IMG/VR virus record: IMGVR_UViG_2917403263_000005
Strand: one strand, 5' to 3'
DNA: 25,925 nucleotides
DNA from: a virus
Taxonomy: Duplodnaviria; Heunggongvirae; Uroviricota; Caudoviricetes
Notes under the pieces: model-generated
The model's input: only the letters and a program-made list of their open reading frames with translations
What the model was told of the DNA's origin: nothing
Databases searched by the model: none
Shown here: piece by piece, positions 1-21,208 of the stretch
Layout: each line of letters begins with the position of its first letter
How positions within the stretch are numbered: the first letter of the stretch is position 1
Position numbers and translations under genes: made by a program

Positions 1-258
1 ATGCAAACCGTTATTTTTGGTCGTCCGGGTTGCTCTTACTGCGTGCGTGCTAAAGAGTTGGCAGACAAACTGAGTAATGAACGCGATGACTTTGAATATC
101 AGTATGTTGATATTCGTGCAGAAGGGATTAGCAAAGAAGATTTACAACAGAAAGCGGGTAAACCAGTAGAAACCGTACCGCAGATTTTTGTCGACCAGCA
201 ACACATCGGCGGCTATACCGATTTTGCTGCCTGGGTGAAAGAGAATCTTGAAGCCTGA
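1..258 (+). CDS. grxA: glutaredoxin 1
   Basis: Complete 85-aa ORF, ATG at 1, TGA at 256-258. Translation MQTVIFGRPGCSYC...HIGGYTDFAAWVKENLEA matches enterobacterial Grx1 along its length as I recall it. Active-site tetrad reads C-S-Y-C. Confidence 0.9.
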   Translation: MQTVIFGRPGCSYCVRAKELADKLSNERDDFEYQYVDIRAEGISKEDLQQKAGKPVETVPQIFVDQQHIGGYTDFAAWVKENLEA

Positions 259-267
259 TTGCCGGAT

Positions 268-302
268 AAGCCCTCTCTGTTTGAGGGCTTTATTGATTTT
301 TT
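268..302. terminator. hairpin plus T-run between convergent grxA and ybjM
   Basis: Perfect 8-bp inverted repeat AAGCCCTC (268-275) / GAGGGCTT (283-290) with 7-nt loop, followed by T-rich run tattgatttttt (291-302). Lies right after the grxA stop and overlaps the ybjM stop. Confidence 0.5.
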
Positions 303-667
303 CTGTGCTGTGACTTGAACAAACTACTAATAAACAAGAAACACAACGCTCCCAACGCACACCAGAAGACGGCGCTCAATAACCACGCCAGCTCTTGCCA
401 GAATGAGCGTGTTGGTGAAAAAAACAGACGCATAATTAACATAGAACACGGTGCCGCCAGCATTGCGCCAAACAGCGGTTTAAGGACTTCTCTACGCTGC
501 GAAAAAAAGCTGGCAACCGCCCCAGGAAGAATGAAAAACAGCAAGCCGATTTCAGGATGCCCGGCAGCCCGAAAAGCGCCTTTCATTTGCGTCGCCAGGA
601 ACAGGCACACTACAATGAAGAGGACAAAACAGCAGATTGCCCCCGCCCAACGTTGTTTATGTTTCAC
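290..667 (-). CDS. ybjM: inner membrane protein YbjM
   Basis: 125-aa ORF, GTG start at 667, hydrophobic throughout (MKHKQRWAGAICCFVLFIVVCLFLAT...). Matches the small membrane protein found between grxA and ybjL in E. coli-like genomes. Confidence 0.85.
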   Translation of the reverse strand: MKHKQRWAGAICCFVLFIVVCLFLATQMKGAFRAAGHPEIGLLFFILPGAVASFFSQRREVLKPLFGAMLAAPCSMLIMRLFFSPTRSFWQELAWLLSAVFWCALGALCFLFISSLFKSQHRKNQ

Positions 668-934
668 TCGCTCCTCCTGACACTGCCTCTATCGAACACA
701 TTTTCGCCACTATGGCGTTCAGTAAGATAAAGCCGCTTCGCATTCCATGCTAATATAGGCCAACGCAATTTTTATAGCCGTTGGTACTTAATGTGATTAC
801 ACTAGTAAAATATATTGTTTCTTTACTATTGCTTATGTGCGCTGAATGAATCCGCGCCCTGATTTCAGGTAAAAACATTATCTTAAATTACCATTTCTTT
901 CAACAGCTTACTCGTAAACAAGAAGTTAGTCTCC

Positions 935-2620
935 GTGAATATAAACGTCGCCGAATTGTTAAATGGGAATTACATTCTGTTATTATTTGTAGTCCTTGCG
1001 CTTGGACTATGTCTAGGAAAATTACGACTTGGTTCAATCCAACTGGGTAATTCCATTGGCGTTTTAGTCGTATCGTTACTATTAGGGCAACAACATTTCA
1101 GCATTAACACCGACGCGCTTAATCTTGGCTTTATGTTGTTTATTTTCTGCGTCGGGGTCGAAGCCGGACCCAACTTTTTTTCCATTTTTTTCCGCGATGG
1201 GAAAAATTACCTAATGTTAGCTCTGGTGATGGTTAGCAGTGCGCTGGCGATCGCCTTAGGGTTGGGTAAGCTGTTTGGCTGGGATATCGGTCTGACGGCC
1301 GGTATGTTGGCTGGCTCCATGACATCGACACCGGTTCTGGTCGGTGCTGGCGACACATTACGCCATTCCGGTATGGAAAGCGGACAGCTCTCCACAGCAC
1401 TGGATAATCTAAGCCTTGGGTATGCGTTAACTTATTTAATCGGCCTGGTGAGTTTAATTGTCGGTGCACGTTATTTACCGAAGTTGCAACATCAGGATTT
1501 ACAGACCAGCGCCCAACAAATCGCTCGCGAACGTGGCCTGGACACCGATGCCAGCCGAAAAGTTTATTTGCCGGTGATCCGCGCCTACCGTGTCGGCCCG
1601 GAGCTGGTGGCCTGGACCGACGGCAAAAATCTGCGTGAATTGGGTATTTATCGTCAAACTGGTTGCTACATTGAACGTATTCGTCGTAACGGGATTCTGG
1701 CAAATCCGGATGGCGACGCCGTGCTGCAAATGGGCGATGAGATAGCGTTAGTGGGATATCCAGACGCCCATGCCCGCCTCGATCCCAGCTTCCGTAACGG
1801 TAAAGAAGTTTTTGATCGTGACCTTCTCGACATGCGTATCGTCACTGAAGAGGTCGTCGTCAAAAACCATAACGCGGTAGGTAAACGTCTGGCACAACTG
1901 AAGTTGACCGATCACGGTTGCTTCCTTAACCGCGTCATCCGCAGCCAGATTGAGATGCCAATTGATGACAACGTTGTGCTTAATAAAGGTGATGTTTTAC
2001 AGGTGAGCGGCGATGCCCGTCGCGTGAAAACCATTGCTGACCGCATCGGCTTTATCTCGATTCACAGCCAGGTCACAGACCTGCTGGCATTCTGCGCGTT
2101 CTTTGTTATTGGCCTGATGATCGGGATGATCACCTTCCAGTTCAGTACATTTAGCTTCGGCATGGGTAACGCTGCTGGCTTGTTATTCGCCGGCATTATG
2201 TTGGGCTTTATGCGCGCTAACCACCCGACCTTCGGTTACATTCCGCAGGGGGCGTTAAGCATGGTGAAAGAGTTCGGCTTGATGGTGTTTATGGCAGGCG
2301 TTGGTTTAAGCGCCGGTAGCGGCATTAATAACGGCCTGGGCGCGATCGGTGGTCAGATGTTAATTGCCGGATTGATTGTCAGTCTGGTGCCGGTGGTTAT
2401 CTGCTTCCTGTTCGGCGCTTATGTACTGCGTATGAACCGCGCACTCCTGTTCGGCGCGATGATGGGCGCGCGTACTTGTGCTCCGGCAATGGAGATCATC
2501 AGCGACACCGCACGCAGTAACATCCCAGCTTTAGGTTATGCGGGTACTTATGCAATAGCTAACGTACTGCTAACGCTGGCCGGGACAATCATTGTCATGG
2601 TATGGCCAGGACTCGGATAA
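935..2620 (+). CDS. ybjL: putative AAE-family transporter YbjL
   Basis: 561-aa ORF, GTG start at 935. Two hydrophobic membrane halves separated by a soluble central region, the known YbjL architecture; N-terminus [20 protein letters not shown] as in E. coli YbjL. Confidence 0.9.
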
Positions 2621-2732
2621 AACTGAAGTTGCCCTGAAAATGAAATTTTTTTGTACAATCGGCGAACTTTTCTTTGGGGCATCAGTCTTAATTAGTGCCA
2701 CTGCTTTTCTTTGATGTCCCCATTTTGTGGAG

Positions 2733-2775
2733 CCCATCAACCCCGCCATTTCGGTTCAAGGTTGATGGGTTTTTT
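2733..2775 (+). terminator. rho-independent terminator-like hairpin downstream of ybjL
   Basis: Perfect 10-bp inverted repeat CCCATCAACC (2733-2742) / GGTTGATGGG (2760-2769) followed by T6 (2770-2775). The loop is long (17 nt), so confidence is moderate. Confidence 0.5.
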
Positions 2776-2855
2776 GTTGCCTGAAATTTATGCCGTTTAA
2801 AATCATGACGTTAGAAGCACTGTTTTTTAACGATGGCGACAAAATGGCGGCAGCG

Positions 2856-3074
2856 TCAAAGAGAGAGCGCCACCTGTCCTGATTTCATTGGATGCGGCTG
2901 AACCGGATTTGACTCTTTTGGCGTTGCAATCGAACGAACAAAAGTTTCATGGGTAACAAAAGTATGGCTGCAGTTAATGTTCTGGCACTGGTTGTAACGC
3001 TCTTTGGTCAATGAAGATACCTGAAAACTGCTGCGAGTATGGGCGGCACTTCCGCACAGTGGGCAAATCATCAT
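2856..3074 (-). CDS. ogr: Ogr/Delta-family zinc-finger late transcription activator
   Basis: Translation MMICPLCGSAAHTRSSF...KERYNQCQNINCSHTF shows the CxxC-x22-CxxxxC Ogr zinc finger and is close to P2 Ogr. The ORF track starts at a GTG at 3107; I place the start at ATG 3074 because GGGGAGAA sits 8-12 nt upstream. Confidence 0.85.
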   Translation of the reverse strand: MMICPLCGSAAHTRSSFQVSSLTKERYNQCQNINCSHTFVTHETFVRSIATPKESNPVQPHPMKSGQVALSL

Positions 3075-10236: not shown

Positions 10237-11421
10237 TTATTTCTGTATTCTCACTGCCATTCTTTTTTGCACATCAAAAAATTTATTAATCACTCCATTG
10301 CGATTAATAAATGGATATTCTATACCTTTAAAAGTCATATAAGCGATAGTCACAACAATTGGCGACAACATCAGAATTAAATATGCGTATGAATTATCAC
10401 TCAAATTTCGCACATACGCCTTCCCGAGTAAAACATCTAAAGTAAAATATAGAACAATCCCGTGCATTAGATAGATACTATATGATATCTCACCAAAGAC
10501 TCTGGAGATTTTCAACTTTAACACACCAAATAGATCACATCCATTTACGATCAAAATAAATATAGCGCCGATCAATAAAATTGGCAGGTAATCAAACGAG
10601 TGAGGGAAGTAAAACAACGAAAAAACGAAACCTGAAACACACAAAAACGATGTCAATTTCAAAGATGCAACTTTTAAGATTAATTTATTACCTCGTACTG
10701 CTGAAGCTAAAAAGCCACAGGCGAATGGCAGCAAAAAGATGTAATTTAAGTTGAGGTAATTAAACGCATATAAGCTAAATGCAGGGATAACTAGCACAAA
10801 GATATTTTTGGTTCTTCTCAAAGCAAATGCAATGAGCGGTAGAGAAAAATAGAATAACCACTCATACACAAGCGTCCAATAAATACCAGCATATATATAA
10901 CCAGTATCACTAAATCCATTTATATGTGAATTACCATAAGTTGCATATATCATCCATGAAAGAATGGATTCAATTAGTTCACCTGCACTTACATTGAGTT
11001 TCCAGCCTGTTTTATATCCTATGATAAATAATGCAATTAAAAGCGAGAACATATACAGAGGATATATTCTAAAAATTCTTGATTTGTACAACGAGAACCA
11101 ATTTATTTTTTTTGAATCAATTATTTTAGAAAAAAACAAATACCCCGTTATCATAAAGAAAATCATAACGGGTAATTGCCCTGCATTCGCAAATACATGA
11201 CTTGAAGGTAAAGACCATTCATTTGTTTTTATAAAGTGATGCCATATATAAGAGTGATGCAGAAACACTAAGAAGGCCAAATACCCTCTTAATCCATCAA
11301 TATTAACGTTCCTACCTTTACCTTCAATTGGTAGCGGGCTTATTTTATCAAGAAAATACAATATGGCGATAGCTGCAAATATAGCAGCTACTATTAACAT
11401 AGGGCTATTATAAATTAACAT
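10237..11421 (-). CDS. acyltransferase-3 family integral membrane protein (putative O-antigen/LPS O-acyltransferase)
   Basis: 394-aa ORF, ATG at 11421 with AAGG 9 nt upstream. Polytopic hydrophobic protein with the N-terminal AT3 signature NIDGLRGYLAFLVFLHH (DGLRG...H). Two sampled 60-nt lines gave about 32% and 40% G+C, against about 52% in a sampled line of the flanking sheath gene. Confidence 0.8.
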   Translation of the reverse strand: MLIYNSPMLIVAAIFAAIAILYFLDKISPLPIEGKGRNVNIDGLRGYLAFLVFLHHSYIWHHFIKTNEWSLPSSHVFANAGQLPVMIFFMITGYLFFSKIIDSKKINWFSLYKSRIFRIYPLYMFSLLIALFIIGYKTGWKLNVSAGELIESILSWMIYATYGNSHINGFSDTGYIYAGIYWTLVYEWLFYFSLPLIAFALRRTKNIFVLVIPAFSLYAFNYLNLNYIFLLPFACGFLASAVRGNKLILKVASLKLTSFLCVSGFVFSLFYFPHSFDYLPILLIGAIFILIVNGCDLFGVLKLKISRVFGEISYSIYLMHGIVLYFTLDVLLGKAYVRNLSDNSYAYLILMLSPIVVTIAYMTFKGIEYPFINRNGVINKFFDVQKRMAVRIQK

Positions 11422-11640: not shown

Positions 11641-11678
11641 AAAACTGGCAGGCATGAAAATCTACCTGCCAGTTTTTT
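11641..11678. terminator. bidirectional terminator-like hairpin after tail-fibre assembly gene
   Basis: AAAA-CTGGCAGG (11645-11652), 12-nt loop, CCTGCCAG (11665-11672), TTTTTT (11673-11678). Immediately 3' of the tail-fibre assembly stop (11677-11679). Confidence 0.45.
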
Positions 11679-12066
11679 ACAATGCAGGTTTATCAGGCCA
11701 TTCAATGTCCGGAGCAGTAGATGTATCGACAGCTTTCACGTCTTTGACATACTGCATCCACATAATCAACTTTGCTTTATTTTCATCACTAATGGTTCCC
11801 AGAAATAAATCAGTCCGCCAGTCTGCTGTTACGGCATTAGCATCTGCAAGCCGTGATTGTCTTTCCTGTTCAGCATTGTTAACCAGCTCTTCATATGTTT
11901 TTACGGGGGCTGGCGGAGCAATAAATTCACCATCAGCGAAAAGCCAGCCAATGCGCACTCCATCAGCAAGTGGGAACACTTGAAAACCATCCGTAGCCCA
12001 TTCACTCTCCCCATCCCATACCGCAATGTTGACAACAACACCATCTCTCACCATTGCATAATTCAT
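11677..12066 (-). CDS. G: tail fibre assembly chaperone (Tfa / gpG-like)
   Basis: C-terminal block LGTISDENKAKLIMWMQYVKDVKAVDTSTAPDIEWPDKP matches the conserved Tfa C-terminus. Start placed at ATG 12066 (GGAG 9 nt upstream, TAATG overlap with the upstream stop) rather than the ORF-track start at 12081. Confidence 0.8.
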   Translation of the reverse strand: MNYAMVRDGVVVNIAVWDGESEWATDGFQVFPLADGVRIGWLFADGEFIAPPAPVKTYEELVNNAEQERQSRLADANAVTADWRTDLFLGTISDENKAKLIMWMQYVKDVKAVDTSTAPDIEWPDKPAL

Positions 12067-12386
12067 TATGCGTACTCCCATACAATTACAATGCCTGCCA
12101 TCCCTGCACCTCCAGCACGTTGCTGTGTCGCGCCGCCGTAAACACAGGCACCGCCACCACCGCCACCTGGTCCATTAGCATTAATTCCTTCTCCGGCAAT
12201 GGCCTGTGAACCCGCGCCCTCACCCAGAACAGAACTGCCACCAGGTCCTCCCATTGCCAGCAATCCTGAATAGCGAACACCTGGCATGGTATAGCCACTG
12301 CCACTGCCAAAAATATTCGCCCCCGTGAATCCAGGTGTGTATGCACCAGCAGGCCCTACAACGGCTACATTATTACCCTCTGTCAT
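12066..12386 (-). CDS. glycine-rich tail-fibre C-terminal segment, out of frame with H (likely 3' part of a split tail-fibre gene)
   Basis: 106-aa ORF whose ATG overlaps the H stop (TAATG). Composition (GPGGGGGGACVYGG...) continues the Gly-rich character of the last 80 residues of H. The -1 frame is open across the G10 tract, so one extra G or two fewer would fuse it to H. Confidence 0.6.
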   Translation of the reverse strand: MTEGNNVAVVGPAGAYTPGFTGANIFGSGSGYTMPGVRYSGLLAMGGPGGSSVLGEGAGSQAIAGEGINANGPGGGGGGACVYGGATQQRAGGAGMAGIVIVWEYA

Positions 12387-13771
12387 TACAGCTCCACCCC
12401 CCCCCCTTTTGCGGTAACAACGTCACCAAATGCTGAACTTCCCCCTGTCGCCCCCGGCATTGCACTGGCTCCCGTTCCTCCGTACCCAACGGTAACCGTT
12501 GTTACTACCGGATGGTCTATGCGGGCTTTAACGTATTCTCCCGACATTCCCCCTCCGCCGCAGGCAGCATTGCCCCCTGTACCGACCTGGCATCCGCCGC
12601 CAGCGCCACCACCGCCAACCACTTCAACAATCGCAAACTTTATACCTGCAGTTGGCGTATATGTCCCGGAGGCTTTGAACACCTGACATTTCACCAGTCG
12701 GCCTGTTCCGTCGCCAAGCCCAAGGTATGTGAGAAGACCAGCTACATCCTTTCCACTCAAATTAGTCAGCGTATTATCCAGCGGTTGTTTTCCCGCCAGT
12801 GCATTAAGCATTGTCGTGGCAAAGTTCGGGTCATTCCCCAGCGCCGCCGCCAGTTCGTTCAGCGTATCCAGTGCCGCAGGTGCAGAACCCACTATTGCTG
12901 CAATCGCCGATTTCACAAAAGCCGTGGTGGCAATCTGTGTATTGTTGACCGACTGTGCCGCAGTCGGTGCTGTTGGCGTTCCGGTGAATGCCGGACTCGA
13001 CAGCGGCGCTTTCAGTGCTAACGCATTGTTAATGGTGGTGCTGAATTTCGGATCATTGTTAATGGCTGCGGCTATTTCTTTCAGCGTGTCCAGCGTGGCT
13101 GGCGCACCATTAATAAGAGCCGTCAGTGCCGCCTGAACAAACGCAGTGGTCGCAACCTGCGTGGTATTATTCCCCGCCGCTGGCGTTGGCGCTTTGGGTG
13201 TTCCGGTAAACGTCGGACTTTCTTTGGGTGCATACTGTGAATGCGGGTCCAGTGCGGCAAGATGTTTTGCCATCTGATCATCCGCGTACACCTTCAGCTC
13301 CAGTACCTTATCATCCACATACTTGCGAGTCGCCAGTACTACAGCAGGGTCGATTGTCAGGGTGATATTGTCCGTACTACTGGTAATCAGCACCATACGC
13401 ACGGTCTGGGTACGCCCGCTGCCTTCAGCCAGTTGCGGCTTATAGCTTTCCGGGCAGTTGCCCACGGCAATCAATGCCCCGGATTCATCAAACAGGCCCA
13501 CTTCACGTATCCACCAACCGCCCTCGTTTTCAGGGATCACCTGTTCAGCAATAATCTGGCTGCTGTTCTGCGGGTCGATATAGAGCATATTCAGCGCAGC
13601 CCGGCGTTTCTCATTTACCAGTGCAGTCTGCTTTGCGTCCGGCGTTGGCAATGTCCCGCCGCCATCGCCGACCGCCATATGGGTAATTTTTAAAGGCACA
13701 CCGAGCGCGGCGGCGCTGGCAAGTTTCGCCGCGCCAATATCCGTCAGCAGGGTATAAAATTTTGTGCTCAT
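12386..13771 (-). CDS. H: tail fibre protein H (N-terminal baseplate-binding part plus repeats; apparently truncated at a G10 tract)
   Basis: 461 aa. N-terminus MSTKFYTLLTDIGAAKLASAAALG is P2 gpH-like. Two tandem ~70-aa repeats (SPTFTGTPKAPT...NALALKA and SPAFTGTPTAPT...NALAGKQ) followed by a Gly-rich C-terminus. ATGA overlap with the I stop. Confidence 0.85.
   Translation of the reverse strand: MSTKFYTLLTDIGAAKLASAAALGVPLKITHMAVGDGGGTLPTPDAKQTALVNEKRRAALNMLYIDPQNSSQIIAEQVIPENEGGWWIREVGLFDESGALIAVGNCPESYKPQLAEGSGRTQTVRMVLITSSTDNITLTIDPAVVLATRKYVDDKVLELKVYADDQMAKHLAALDPHSQYAPKESPTFTGTPKAPTPAAGNNTTQVATTAFVQAALTALINGAPATLDTLKEIAAAINNDPKFSTTINNALALKAPLSSPAFTGTPTAPTAAQSVNNTQIATTAFVKSAIAAIVGSAPAALDTLNELAAALGNDPNFATTMLNALAGKQPLDNTLTNLSGKDVAGLLTYLGLGDGTGRLVKCQVFKASGTYTPTAGIKFAIVEVVGGGGAGGGCQVGTGGNAACGGGGMSGEYVKARIDHPVVTTVTVGYGGTGASAMPGATGGSSAFGDVVTAKGGGVEL
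12397..12406 (-). repeat. homopolymeric G10 tract (C10 on plus strand) at the 3' end of tail-fibre gene H
   Basis: Counted directly: plus strand ccaCCCCCCCCCCtttt. On the coding strand it reads GCA AAA GGG GGG GGG GTG GAG CTG TAA. Confidence 0.9.
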
Positions 13772-16309: not shown

Positions 16310-17137
16310 ATGAAAAATAAGAACCAGTATCAGGCTTTACTTAGAGGGAAGGTCGAATCGGCGATTGCTCAAGCCAAAAGTGCTGCAGGATTTTCCCACC
16401 AGGGTGTTAAGGGAGCTGTTCTAGAAATATTATTAAGTCAACTATTTCGACCTCTTTTGCCCGCAGATGTTGGCATTGGCACAGGGCAAATCATTGAACA
16501 GTATTCAGGAAAGTTATCACCTCAAATAGATATTATTATTTACAATAAATCAATACTCCCTCCGATATTAATCGATGGTGCCACAGGGTTATTCCCAATA
16601 GAATCAGTTCTATATACCATTGAGGTAAAAACCACATTAAGCTCATCGGAACTCAGCTCTGCACACTCAAGTGCAAAAGAACTTAATGAGAAATTCGGTT
16701 ACTTACCTGGAATAAAAGATGAATCAGGCAAACTAATCCAACACAAAATAGAGAAACTTCGCTCGGTAATATTCGCTCTAAGTAGCGACTTATCACCAAA
16801 TGGAATTACTGAAGCCGAAAGGTATAAAAAAATATACAAAGAAGACTTTCGTTACGTTACAGCAATTTGCGTTGCAGGTCGTGAGTATAGTTATGAAGAT
16901 CGAGATTGCTGGGTAACAATGCGTAATACTCAAGCGTATGATGAAATCCTTGCATTTATTGGAGGCATAACCAATACATATAAAGGTGTTTCAGAAAGTC
17001 GTGGGACACCATTGCTAGGATATTACATTGTTCCAGAGAATGTCGAACTGAGCCTTACAGCTTGTACCACACTCCCGGAATTGCAAGTTAAGTGCACGCA
17101 ATGCGCTGAAACTAAAAAAAATAATCCCCACCTTTGA
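16310..17137 (+). CDS. uncharacterised PD-(D/E)xK-like nuclease-fold protein with C-terminal CxxC (cargo gene, frame as called)
   Basis: 275-aa ORF on the strand opposite all flanking late genes. Restriction-endonuclease-like motif pattern E39 ... D74 (PQIDIIIY) ... E105-x-K107 (YTIEVKTT). C262-x-x-C265 near the C-terminus. AT-rich: two sampled lines gave about 27% and 38% G+C. I cannot assign it to a named family. Confidence 0.6.
   Translation: MKNKNQYQALLRGKVESAIAQAKSAAGFSHQGVKGAVLEILLSQLFRPLLPADVGIGTGQIIEQYSGKLSPQIDIIIYNKSILPPILIDGATGLFPIESVLYTIEVKTTLSSSELSSAHSSAKELNEKFGYLPGIKDESGKLIQHKIEKLRSVIFALSSDLSPNGITEAERYKKIYKEDFRYVTAICVAGREYSYEDRDCWVTMRNTQAYDEILAFIGGITNTYKGVSESRGTPLLGYYIVPENVELSLTACTTLPELQVKCTQCAETKKNNPHL
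17114..17121 (+). repeat. A8 homopolymer at the point where the cargo ORF changes frame
   Basis: Counted directly: actAAAAAAAAtaat (17114-17121). In frame it reads ACT AAA AAA AAT AAT CCC CAC CTT TGA. Confidence 0.9.
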
Positions 17138-20556: not shown

Positions 20557-21208
20557 TCAGCGGCTGTCATTGCGCAGTCTGCGCTCCAGCTGCTGTTTGT
20601 CTTTTTTCACGCCACAGCGGGGATCGAGCTGTAACGCATGGTTGAGATGATTAAGGGCGGAAGCCGGATTGCTTTCACTCAGGACAGCGCCAATCGCTTT
20701 ATGCAGACGTGCCCGTGACTGGTCCGGCATATCCAGACCGTCTGTCAGCTCCAGCGTCTGCAGCAACAGATCAGCATCAAAGCCGGTGGCGGCAAGCATT
20801 GCGCTCTGCGCTGCGTCTGCCATTTCCTCTGCCAGCACGGTCTGCACGTTGCGGTTACCCAACGGCATCACCCAGCCATGACGCAGGGCGTGACGCCCGA
20901 TCTCCAGCCGCCCCGGCATAATCTCCGGCATCAATGCGCCACAGCATCACGTACATCAGCACGTCATCCTGTTGCGCGCCTCCGGCAGCCAGGACACCCT
21001 CTGCCCAGGCGGCGTATTTCGGCAGCAGTTCCACCTTGATTTCCGCTTTTTTGACCGTGGACTGAACACCCTTGAGACGGCGGCGGTCTTCCGCCAGTTG
21101 CAGCAGCATCAGGTCATAGCCCGACGCGTGGCGAACGCTGCCGCCCTCACGGGCGGCCTGTTCAGCCTGAACGCGCAGGCGATGCTGCCGTGCGGGACTC
21201 AGGCTCAT
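20557..21208 (-). pseudogene. M: terminase endonuclease/small subunit M, interrupted by a 1-nt frameshift
   Basis: N-terminal part (frame A, 21208..20855: ...DDVLMYVMLWRIDAGDYAGA) and C-terminal part (frame B, 20934..20557: LEIGRHALRHGWVMP...GVKKDKQQLERRL) each match consecutive halves of P2 gpM. The join needs removal of one G in GCCGGGGCG-G-CTGGAG (plus strand 20902-20917). Confidence 0.75.

Follow-up and report, generated by a model that had tools for sequence, protein, structure and literature searches.

Hypermutable poly-G tracts are described in the receptor-binding protein genes of Campylobacter Fletchervirus phages, as far as the account cited in PMC10877375 goes (Sorensen et al. 2021, Cell Rep 35:109214). 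A G homopolymer of this kind is present in the receptor-binding/fibre gene of the prophage considered here, a change in its length likewise shifts the frame and truncates the protein, and the tract length differs between datasets. The Fletchervirus tracts are reportedly conserved in their lineage, and ON and OFF lengths are said to coexist in lysates. Unlike them, the tract described below is young, is absent from most relatives and is on record in OFF lengths only. The host is also different, being an enterobacterium (Escherichia sp. E3659) with a temperate P2-like prophage.

Two other systems share single features with this locus. In the thymidine kinase gene of HSV, a G7 run carries a 'savior indel' accompanied by compensatory low-level frameshifting (PMC5009743). 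There, as here, an indel of one base in a G run inactivates a viral gene, and rare slippage could yield traces of the full-length product. Unlike in this eukaryotic system, no sign was seen in the prophage of an advantage of the OFF state or of a role for trace expression. In the programmed −1 frameshifts of tail assembly chaperones, G/GT of lambda and E/E+E' of P2, two overlapping ORFs of the tail region stand in a −1 relation and meet at a stretch of one repeated base, which is also the arrangement found here. The sites of these chaperones are conserved across relatives and consist of efficient slippery heptamers, whereas the fibre-gene site is not conserved, has a motif that works poorly in E. 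coli and showed no stimulator.

The window, i.e., the whole stretch of DNA analysed (25,925 nucleotides), contains on the minus strand a fibre gene H of the P2 gpH type (12066..13771) that is interrupted by a −1 frameshift. The layout of a P2-type fibre module is present: H comes after the baseplate genes J and I and is followed by a Caudo_TAP chaperone gene, and the gene order V-W-J-I-H-TFA is common to the window and its relatives. As assembled, the first part of the gene is H' (12386..13771, minus strand; 461 aa; WP_240727707.1 of Escherichia sp. E3659), composed of residues 1-457 of the intact fibre and the out-of-frame tail GVEL. The break is at a G10 homopolymer inside H (12397-12406, minus strand; C10 on the plus strand), where direct reading of the minus strand gives ...GCA AAA GGG GGG GGG GTG GAG CTG TAA TG... 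This is the only homopolymer of at least 9 nt in the window; chance alone would yield about 0.03 such tracts per window, and they were present in 2 of 100 shuffles. The stop codon TAA of H' (12386-12388) stands three codons past the end of the tract (GTG GAG CTG TAA) and seven codons from its start, which corrects the distance of eight codons given previously.

The second part, ORF2 (12066..12386, minus strand; 106 aa), covers the C-terminal half of the Gly-rich distal domain and corresponds to M463-A568 of the intact fibre. It begins at an ATG that overlaps the stop codon of H' by one base (TAATG). Upstream of this ATG the frame stays open through the tract, as the sequence-only reading had described, over a length of 13 codons. 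The segment TGGAGCTGTA (12387..12396, minus strand) holds a GGAG 5 nt upstream of this ATG together with the start of the H' stop. Owing to the GGAG and the TAATG overlap, the ORF2 fragment is probably translated. The signals themselves are fortuitous, the intact gene using the same bases for G-G-A-V-M. Internal promoter or terminator signals around the split were not found above the shuffle expectation. The gene of the tail-fibre assembly chaperone (11677..12066, minus strand; 129 aa; PF02413 Caudo_TAP, E=3.9e-25), annotated as 'tail fiber assembly protein' in relatives, overlaps the ORF2 stop by its start, again as TAATG. Simulated tracts of G11 and G8 give a single fibre of 568 and 567 aa, respectively, in line with the roughly 567 aa predicted, while G9 and G12 lead into a third, dead frame.

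On comparison with homologous proteins, H' and ORF2 are recognized as halves of one P2-type tail-fibre gene, and a two-gene arrangement is ruled out. Orthologues of H are one 1707-nt CDS coding for 568 aa (WP_095186540.1), in which a Phage_tail_fib N-terminus is followed by a repeated shaft and a C-terminal Gly_rich_2 distal domain. In a Pfam scan the fused product matched PF12571 Phage_tail_fib at residues 1-150 (E=6e-65) and PF21722 Gly_rich_2 at residues 370-563 (E=1e-9; 39.2 bits against a cut-off of 24.3; profile positions 7-223 of 226). The second match runs across the junction, which bears out the suggestion that a fibre gene is split here by a frameshift in the homopolymer. ORF2 shares 98-99% identity with the C-terminal ends of the 568-aa proteins, and its assignment to the C-terminal part of the fibre holds. 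At 76-81% identity and over 99-100% of its length, it also matches the C-terminal part of fragments from a 'carbohydrate kinase'/Gly_rich_2 family, whose full-length members (~316 aa) align unbroken across the junction. Continuity through 'GG-x-GG' is likewise seen in the wider family (hundreds of contigs, at 78% identity) and in distant members. ORF2 alone gave no Pfam match and, with this and its identity to the 568-aa C-termini, was rejected as an independent gene. In annotation, the products listed for E3659 as a 461-aa 'phage tail protein' and a 106-aa 'hypothetical protein' should be regarded as one frameshifted or mis-sequenced fibre gene.

The structure of the distal domain was considered using P0023, a 78%-identical homologue, in place of the window protein. 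In its AF2 model (pLDDT 90-98 in the distal domain), the junction falls on a Gly turn that links strands, 100 residues of the domain preceding it and 111 following, and the ORF2 start falls inside a beta-strand of the compact domain. Foldseek with this model retrieved the Pam3 fibre (7ypx_A, E=1.4e-10) and the Bxb1 tail tip (9d93, E=1e-7), while a search of PDB by sequence gave no match. The likeness to these PF21722 distal domains thus consists in the sequence family and, through a close homologue, in the fold; unlike the others, the copy in the window is cut in two by a frameshift. Because the cut falls in mid-domain and takes away half of one compact domain, not a separable module, the length switch envisaged by the sequence-only reading is unlikely.

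The tract is derived. Intact relatives carry G6-TT-G3 (11 nt, Leu458; L001, L002, L007, L008, L014 and L015) or G7-T-G3 (Val458; L006), and G10 is the Val allele minus its T. The Leu, Val and frameshifted forms share one protein background (P0001, P0005, P0014), L458V was seen in three backgrounds, and across the wider family the codon at position 458 specifies Leu, Asn or Tyr. As a separate matter, some of the recurrent T>G calls beside G runs could be systematic sequencing errors. The G10 form is carried by at least three flanking haplotypes; such recurrence could also come from short-patch recombination instead of repeated mutation. The heterogeneity in tract length that had been anticipated was found within the haplotype of the window (G10, G9 and a contig break), but not among related prophages, which have G6TTG3 or G7TG3 and a single 568-aa ORF. 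In the orthologues and related lineages examined the tract is not retained as a repeat. This type of fibre gene occurs at >85% nucleotide identity in 2 of 5426 complete E. coli genomes, both with G6TTG3. The phage collection held no full match to the gene, and flank-anchored pattern scans returned no genome locus, one metagenome locus and two viral loci, none of them with a homopolymer.

The cleanest comparison is given by L013, an 89-kb E. coli contig with G10. It differs from the prophage of the complete genome AP027886 by 10 mismatches in 20.3 kb, the sole indel being at the tract, and its late genes other than H are all intact. Such near-identity to an intact prophage indicates that the G10 alleles are very young. 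In at least this one clean dataset, G10 is, on the contig sequence, to be regarded as real.

The best explanation, to which we give about as much credence as doubt, is one P2-type fibre gene whose frame was recently shifted by −1 at a mutational hot spot, without an evolved switch. An ancestor with AAA-GGG-GGG-TTG-GGT would have passed by a T>G change beside the G6 run to G7TG3, and the loss of the last T would then have merged both runs into G10. In the G10 form as assembled, translation ends three codons further on, yielding a 461-aa fibre without the C-terminal ~107 residues of the single compact Gly-rich distal (receptor-binding-type) domain; the remainder is probably made as a separate 106-aa fragment. 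With the fibre truncated and its end produced separately, the G10 fibre is most likely non-functional (OFF). The lesion may be able to revert, since G10 is intrinsically slippery: a change of G10 to G11 in the DNA, or rare slippage of polymerase or ribosome, would restore a full-length L458G fibre. As this reversibility would stem from the slippery lesion itself, any switching would be an accidental by-product. Other −1 lesions occur at the same site, namely G5TTG3 in five runs and a product ending in '...GGWVEL*' in the P0001 background, and are better explained by a fragile site than by a designed switch.

A frameshift of this kind is similar to ordinary prophage decay, in that a one-base deletion in a G-rich run truncates a structural gene of an integrated prophage and in that, set against the intact copies, the allele is rare and recent. 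Unlike in ordinary decay, the prophage is otherwise intact in the cleaner datasets (L011, L013), the same site is hit on several haplotypes, and the succession of TTG > GTG > T loss builds a reversible homopolymer.

A platform under-call of an intact gene is a serious rival to a real frameshift, although we consider it unlikely. It supposes that E3659 truly carries an in-frame G11 (Leu458 to Gly, intact 568 aa), in which one or two bases were missed. The reads of the strain are single-end Ion Torrent data of 35-400 nt at 40x (PMC6639607), and homopolymer indels of this platform are frequent, increase with run length and are mostly deletions (PMC12046094). A homopolymer sequencing error, already allowed for by the sequence-only reading, is on account of this source a live possibility. 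The window resembles Ion Torrent draft artefacts (PMC12046094) in its platform, in its single-base run indels and in its frameshifted ORFs. It includes two further single-base indels, A8 instead of A7 at 17114 and an extra C at 20908, both of which break genes, gene M being one of them, and are absent from an independent 20.3-kb contig of otherwise identical haplotype. The E3659 draft thus carries gene-breaking indel errors in the same window. The G11 allele would be viable, since Gly at position 458 is natural in distant members of the family.

Unlike those two indels, the G10 tract recurs in another dataset with the haplotype of the window. In SRR8835201 G10 is kept while gene M and the DUF6602 gene are intact, and random Ion Torrent errors usually fail to recur between datasets (PMC12046094). 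The frameshift at the tract is the only recurring indel in the haplotype of the window. The same haplotype gave G9 in SRR26188687 and a contig break inside the tract, at G9|G10, in SRR6148330; all these tract lengths are contig-level calls. The order of accessions and the sequence identity suggest that SRR6148330 is E3659 and SRR8835201 is E4385. As one haplotype yields G10, G9 and a break, G10 and not G11 can be taken only provisionally as the true length in E3659. The under-call is further opposed by the presence of G10 on other haplotypes in unrelated datasets, including L013, and by exact look-ups in a collection of 15 billion sequences, where the proteins expected from G11 or G8 were absent in five backgrounds (window, P0001, P0004, P0006 and P0007) and products of +1 frameshifting were not found. 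Every homopolymer length on record is 10 or shorter.

Next in standing is a phase-variable switch, in which replication slippage would toggle the population between G10 and G11 (or G8) while selection would preserve this ON/OFF switching of the distal domain. We regard it as improbable. The position of a 10-nt G run within a receptor-binding-type domain, the length polymorphism inside one haplotype, and the occurrence of G10 on at least three haplotypes are compatible with it, as are contigs ending exactly at the split site in three runs, which would fit mixed populations; the Campylobacter phages, in the account cited in PMC10877375, provide a precedent. However, most relatives have G6TTG3 or G7TG3 in place of the tract, and the G10 alleles are evolutionarily very young. 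Both homopolymer lengths seen, G10 and G9, are OFF, and a homopolymer allele of ON length is missing from the five backgrounds searched. Part of the length variation may be accounted for by platform error, and the non-homopolymer lesion G5TTG3 at the same site suggests fragility. The built-in slipped-strand switch put forward on first inspection of the sequence is not supported by these observations. Should the tract be real and toggling, it would amount to accidental natural switching of host range (adsorption) in an enterobacterial prophage.

A related view, which we hold to be highly doubtful, treats the series G6TTG3 > G7TG3 > G10 (> G9) as the birth of a contingency locus, with G10/G11 used as an ON/OFF device by P2-like Escherichia prophages. 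The Gly-rich domain, which is encoded by GGN codons, would repeatedly, and on independent haplotypes, ratchet towards a long run of G by run-extending substitutions and the loss of the interrupting base. The switch would perhaps be tolerated, the clean split leaving a translationally coupled two-piece tip. If this view is true, temperate phages of enterobacteria would join the Campylobacter phages in showing poly-G phase variation of receptor-binding proteins, and the origin of such tracts would become apparent.

The least probable of the alternatives, very improbable in our judgement, is that G10 is tolerated, either by virtue of −1 ribosomal frameshifting or RNA-polymerase slippage or by non-covalent association of H' (1-461) with the 106-aa fragment in a functional tip. 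A −1 shift on G_GGG_GGG, a heptamer that occurs in the H frame, would give exactly the G11 product, while the efficient A_AAG_GGG is outside the H frame. The split is clean, with only residues 458-462 replaced, and the break sits in a Gly turn; the initiation signals ahead of ORF2, the frameshifting at the G runs of HSV thymidine kinase, and the repeated occurrence of this split in prophages that are otherwise intact also agree with tolerance. Motifs of the type G_GG.G_GG.N, however, rank near the bottom of −1 motifs in E. coli, with 0.018% frameshifting at G_GG.G_GG.U in the absence of a stimulator. The 87 nt downstream showed no stimulatory RNA structure, being no more structured than shuffles (−20.1 kcal/mol vs a shuffle mean of −21.8, z=+0.6). 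Neither the two-ORF arrangement nor a recoding signal at the site is conserved, since in the relatives one ORF simply runs through in frame. As in fibres of the P2 gpH type, three chains presumably make up the fibre, and a few percent of full-length chains would therefore rarely give trimers in which all chains are full-length. A two-piece tip is further opposed by the ORF2 start lying within a beta-strand of a compact domain. Programmed −1 frameshifting was rejected, its motif being poor and a stimulatory structure not being found.

Apart from the fate of the E3659 fibre, the short G-rich stretch of the fibre-tip domain is either a real hot spot that makes a hypermutable tract anew or a site that several sequencing technologies misread. 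In public data it is altered repeatedly: by T>G, by −1 lesions, and by TT>G giving G10.

The tail-fibre gene H of the window is read as two open reading frames on the minus strand, which carries the late-gene block of a P2-like prophage. The first, H' (12386..13771, 461 aa), terminates three codons past a run of ten G residues at 12397-12406 on the same strand. The second, ORF2 (12066..12386, 106 aa), starts on the last base of the H' stop (TAATG); followed upstream, its frame stays open through the run. Across the junction the minus strand reads ACC GCA AAA, GGG GGG GGG, GTG GAG CTG TAA and TG ACA GAG in succession. ORF2 itself overlaps the tail-fibre assembly gene (Caudo_TAP; 11677..12066, minus strand, 129 aa) through a second TAATG. 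The G10 run is the sole homopolymer of at least 9 nt across the 25.9-kb window, about 0.03 being expected by chance. In simulation, G11 gives a single ORF of 568 aa and G8 one of 567 aa; G9 and G12 lead into the third frame, which is closed. The sequence-only reading is thus borne out in the ORF2 start at the H stop with its open frame, in the chaperone that follows, and in the fusion to about 567 aa by G11 or G8. It was also right about the G10 tract and the nearby stop, which it had placed eight codons away instead of three. The most likely reading, at about even odds, is that a single tail-fibre gene has undergone a real, recent -1 frameshift at a fragile G-rich site, which leaves the fibre OFF and the tract physically able to slip back.

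Judged from domain and homologue comparisons, H' and ORF2 are one gene. The fused product matches Phage_tail_fib at its N-terminus (residues 1-150, E=6e-65) and Gly_rich_2 (PF21722) over residues 370-563, the latter covering profile positions 7-223 of 226 across the junction. ORF2 by itself had no family match in the same domain scan. The fibre C-terminus was found at high nucleotide identity in only two of 5426 complete E. coli genomes, and both carriers have H annotated as one 1707-nt CDS (WP_095186540.1) followed by the chaperone. The 90% protein cluster consists mostly of 568-aa members from E. coli, E. ruysiae and Shigella. A wider family of about 316-aa proteins shows 78% identity across the entire C-terminal 217 aa and is unbroken through AKGG-L-GG; across 30 aligned sequences the two GG pairs enclose L, N, Y, A or V, and G in a few distant members. 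With no match alone, a Gly_rich_2 domain spanning the junction and single-CDS relatives, ORF2 as an independent gene is ruled out. The sequence-only reading had allowed that ORF2 might not resemble fibre C-termini; the Gly_rich_2 match of the fused product reaches far into its sequence.

The wider family (proteins P0018-P0107) occurs by the hundreds in E. coli and Shigella under the NCBI name "carbohydrate kinase". For glycine-rich fibre-tip proteins this name looks like a propagated misannotation, as fold and gene context point to a phage fibre tip. Two other Gly_rich_2 relatives, P0118 (35 contigs) and P0122 (46 contigs), are frameshift-truncated at other positions, and frameshifted copies, real or artefactual, seem common in the GGN-rich coding sequence of this family.

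The distal domain was modelled with AlphaFold2 on P0023, an intact homologue 78% identical to the window protein. Residues ~105-316 of the model form a single beta-rich, glycine-rich domain (pLDDT 90-98). The tract site corresponds to L205, in a tight Gly turn joining two strands, with about 100 domain residues before it and 111 after; the ORF2 start would fall within the strand after the turn. Foldseek matched this model to the cyanophage Pam3 fibre (7ypx_A, E=1.4e-10), the mycobacteriophage Bxb1 tail tip (9d93, 1e-7) and, weakly, the glycine-rich TG domain of ALK/LTK; a PDB sequence search gave no match. The frameshift is predicted to take off half of a compact distal domain and not a separable module, so the length switch of the distal domain suggested earlier is disfavoured by a cut that falls mid-domain.

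Comparison of alleles indicates that the G10 tract is derived, not conserved. The two complete genomes carry AAAA-GGGGGG-TT-GGG-TGGAGC at the site (11 nt, in frame), from which the window differs by a net TT>G. Scanning with a flank-anchored pattern turned up two viral contigs with G6TTG3 and one gut-metagenome contig with G7TG3; no scanned contig had a homopolymer at the site. Tract length in related prophages, a comparison proposed by the sequence-only reading, therefore reveals G6TTG3 or G7TG3 and no conserved homopolymer. P0001 (70 contigs) has Leu at codon 458, whereas P0005 of the same background (11 contigs) has Val, as do P0011 and the Shigella-type background P0285. The Val allele (G7TG3) minus its single T is exactly G10. 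In the simplest history, TTG > GTG would lengthen a G run, and loss of the T from GTG would then join two G runs into G10.

Lesions recur at this site. The truncation "...AKGGGVEL*" is also present in the P0001 background (P0014), where an additional -1 product, "...AKGGWVEL*", is recorded. ORF2 used as a query retrieved a 99%-identical E. coli version on at least 24 contigs. The tract state was read in all fetched loci: G10 in L013 (SRR35690774) and L021 (SRR26188678); G5TTG3, a different -1 lesion, in five runs of a more divergent haplotype (L017-L020, L022); and G6TTG3 in L014 and L015, where the 106-aa ORF call is due only to a deletion or contig start. G10 stands on at least three flanking haplotypes tabulated over -450..+750 nt: the L001 type (L013), L021 and window/L011. 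L013, an 89-kb E. coli contig, differs from the intact prophage of the complete genome AP027886 by 10 mismatches and one indel over 20.3 kb; the indel is at the tract, and the other late genes are all intact. This near-identity with a single indel argues that the lesion in L013 is recent and that its dataset is not indel-noisy.

Contigs L016 (SRR15598597) and L023 (SRR8634378) start exactly at ...GGGTGGAGC. These independent assemblies break at the same base, directly 3' of the variable TT/G position, which points to heterogeneity among the reads, or to two diverged copies, at the site. L014 (GCA_041084385.1, JBCEXT010000008.1) has an internal deletion fusing a terminase fragment to the final 106 H codons, and a 786-aa sheath-containing fusion ORF with Pfam matches to sheath domains only. 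It is clearly a degraded copy of the same prophage element in the same ybjL-side location.

The main rival, possible but clearly less probable, is that the source strain holds an intact in-frame G11 allele under-called by the sequencer. Both products, of 461 and 106 aa, have exact counterparts in Escherichia sp. E3659, a cryptic-clade-II isolate sequenced by Ion Torrent (single-end, 35-400 nt, 40x) and assembled with MIRA and SPAdes (PMC6639607). Homopolymer indels on this platform are frequent, mostly deletions, and increase with run length; they rarely repeat between independent runs (PMC12046094). Gene M (terminase small/endonuclease subunit; 20557-21208, minus strand), 216 aa in relatives, is here, against the closest intact relative, split into ORFs of 117 and 125 aa by one extra C at 20908/20909 (GGGGCGGCTGG vs GGGGCGCTGG). 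The window was compared with Logan-assembled SRA runs identified by accession alone, not by strain or platform. The 20.3-kb SRR8835201 contig differs from the window by no substitution and by two indels only: it has an intact M and, at 17114, A7 in place of A8, while H is still G10. The extra C, absent from this otherwise identical contig and from AP027886, is a probable Ion Torrent error. The A8 run (17114-17121) lies in a DUF6602 cargo gene (16310-17137, plus strand) between baseplate gene V and tail gene S, of 275 aa in the window vs 328 aa in the SRR8835201 contig; the window copy is probably cut short by sequencing error. Since both indels are gone in a same-haplotype contig, two of the three window frameshifts look like platform errors. 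SRR6148330 contigs match the window at 100%, M frameshift included, and one terminates within the tract at nine G's, as expected from abundant k-mers of both G9 and G10-or-longer. The SRR26188687 contig equals the window except for G9. Tract length thus varies between datasets (G10, G9), which favours the artefact. However, of the window's frameshifts only that of H recurs, G10 is found across datasets and in the clean L013, and in the 15-billion-protein collection neither of the in-frame homopolymer lengths, G11 and G8, occurs in the five backgrounds tested. No +1 frameshift products were found there either.

An evolved phase-variable switch, the slipped-strand ON/OFF device originally envisaged, is unlikely. 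Neither tract conservation nor coexisting ON and OFF lengths, both defining tests of such a system, was found, and no ON-length allele is on record in the five backgrounds tested. The nearest known system in kind is the poly-G phase variation reported for Campylobacter Fletchervirus receptor-binding proteins (Sorensen 2021, as cited in PMC10877375); the likeness is trivial only, as any G10 run slips.

Ribosomes slipping by -1 on G_GGG_GGG would make exactly the G11 product. G_GG.G_GG.N heptamers are among the weakest in E. coli (0.018% without a stimulator; PMC4066793), the efficient motif A_AAG_GGG is not in phase with H, and no stimulatory RNA structure above shuffles was detected in the 87 nt downstream (z=+0.6). 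With this poor heptamer, structure score and phase, nothing points to a programmed frameshift site. Around the split, neither promoter nor terminator signals are prominent. Trace slippage rescue may occur at G10, by analogy with the G7 run of HSV thymidine kinase (PMC5009743). Expression-level rescue in general, or a functional two-piece fibre tip, is unsupported and improbable.

The main value of the frameshift finding lies in annotation and data quality. The same 11-nt stretch has changed repeatedly, and directionally, in public data, which is of modest, secondary interest.

The DUF6602 gene lies on the strand opposite to the late genes and is not in the AP027886 prophage. Its matches to Pfam DUF6602 (1e-21), PADLOC PD_DExK (6.6e-32) and a NucC-like nuclease (7e-14) make it a candidate prophage-borne defence nuclease. 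An Acyl_transf_3 membrane acyltransferase gene (10237-11421, minus strand, 394 aa) separates the fibre chaperone from the sheath gene and is present in all fetched loci with enough sequence downstream of this fibre type. It is likely a fibre-linked moron modifying surface polysaccharide (lysogenic conversion). An A7/A8 difference splits this gene in some noisy contigs (L017, L020). Within window positions 1-3000, beside the ogr end of the prophage, are the host genes grxA, ybjM and ybjL, the same insertion surroundings as in E. coli AP027886 despite the cryptic clade II Escherichia host.
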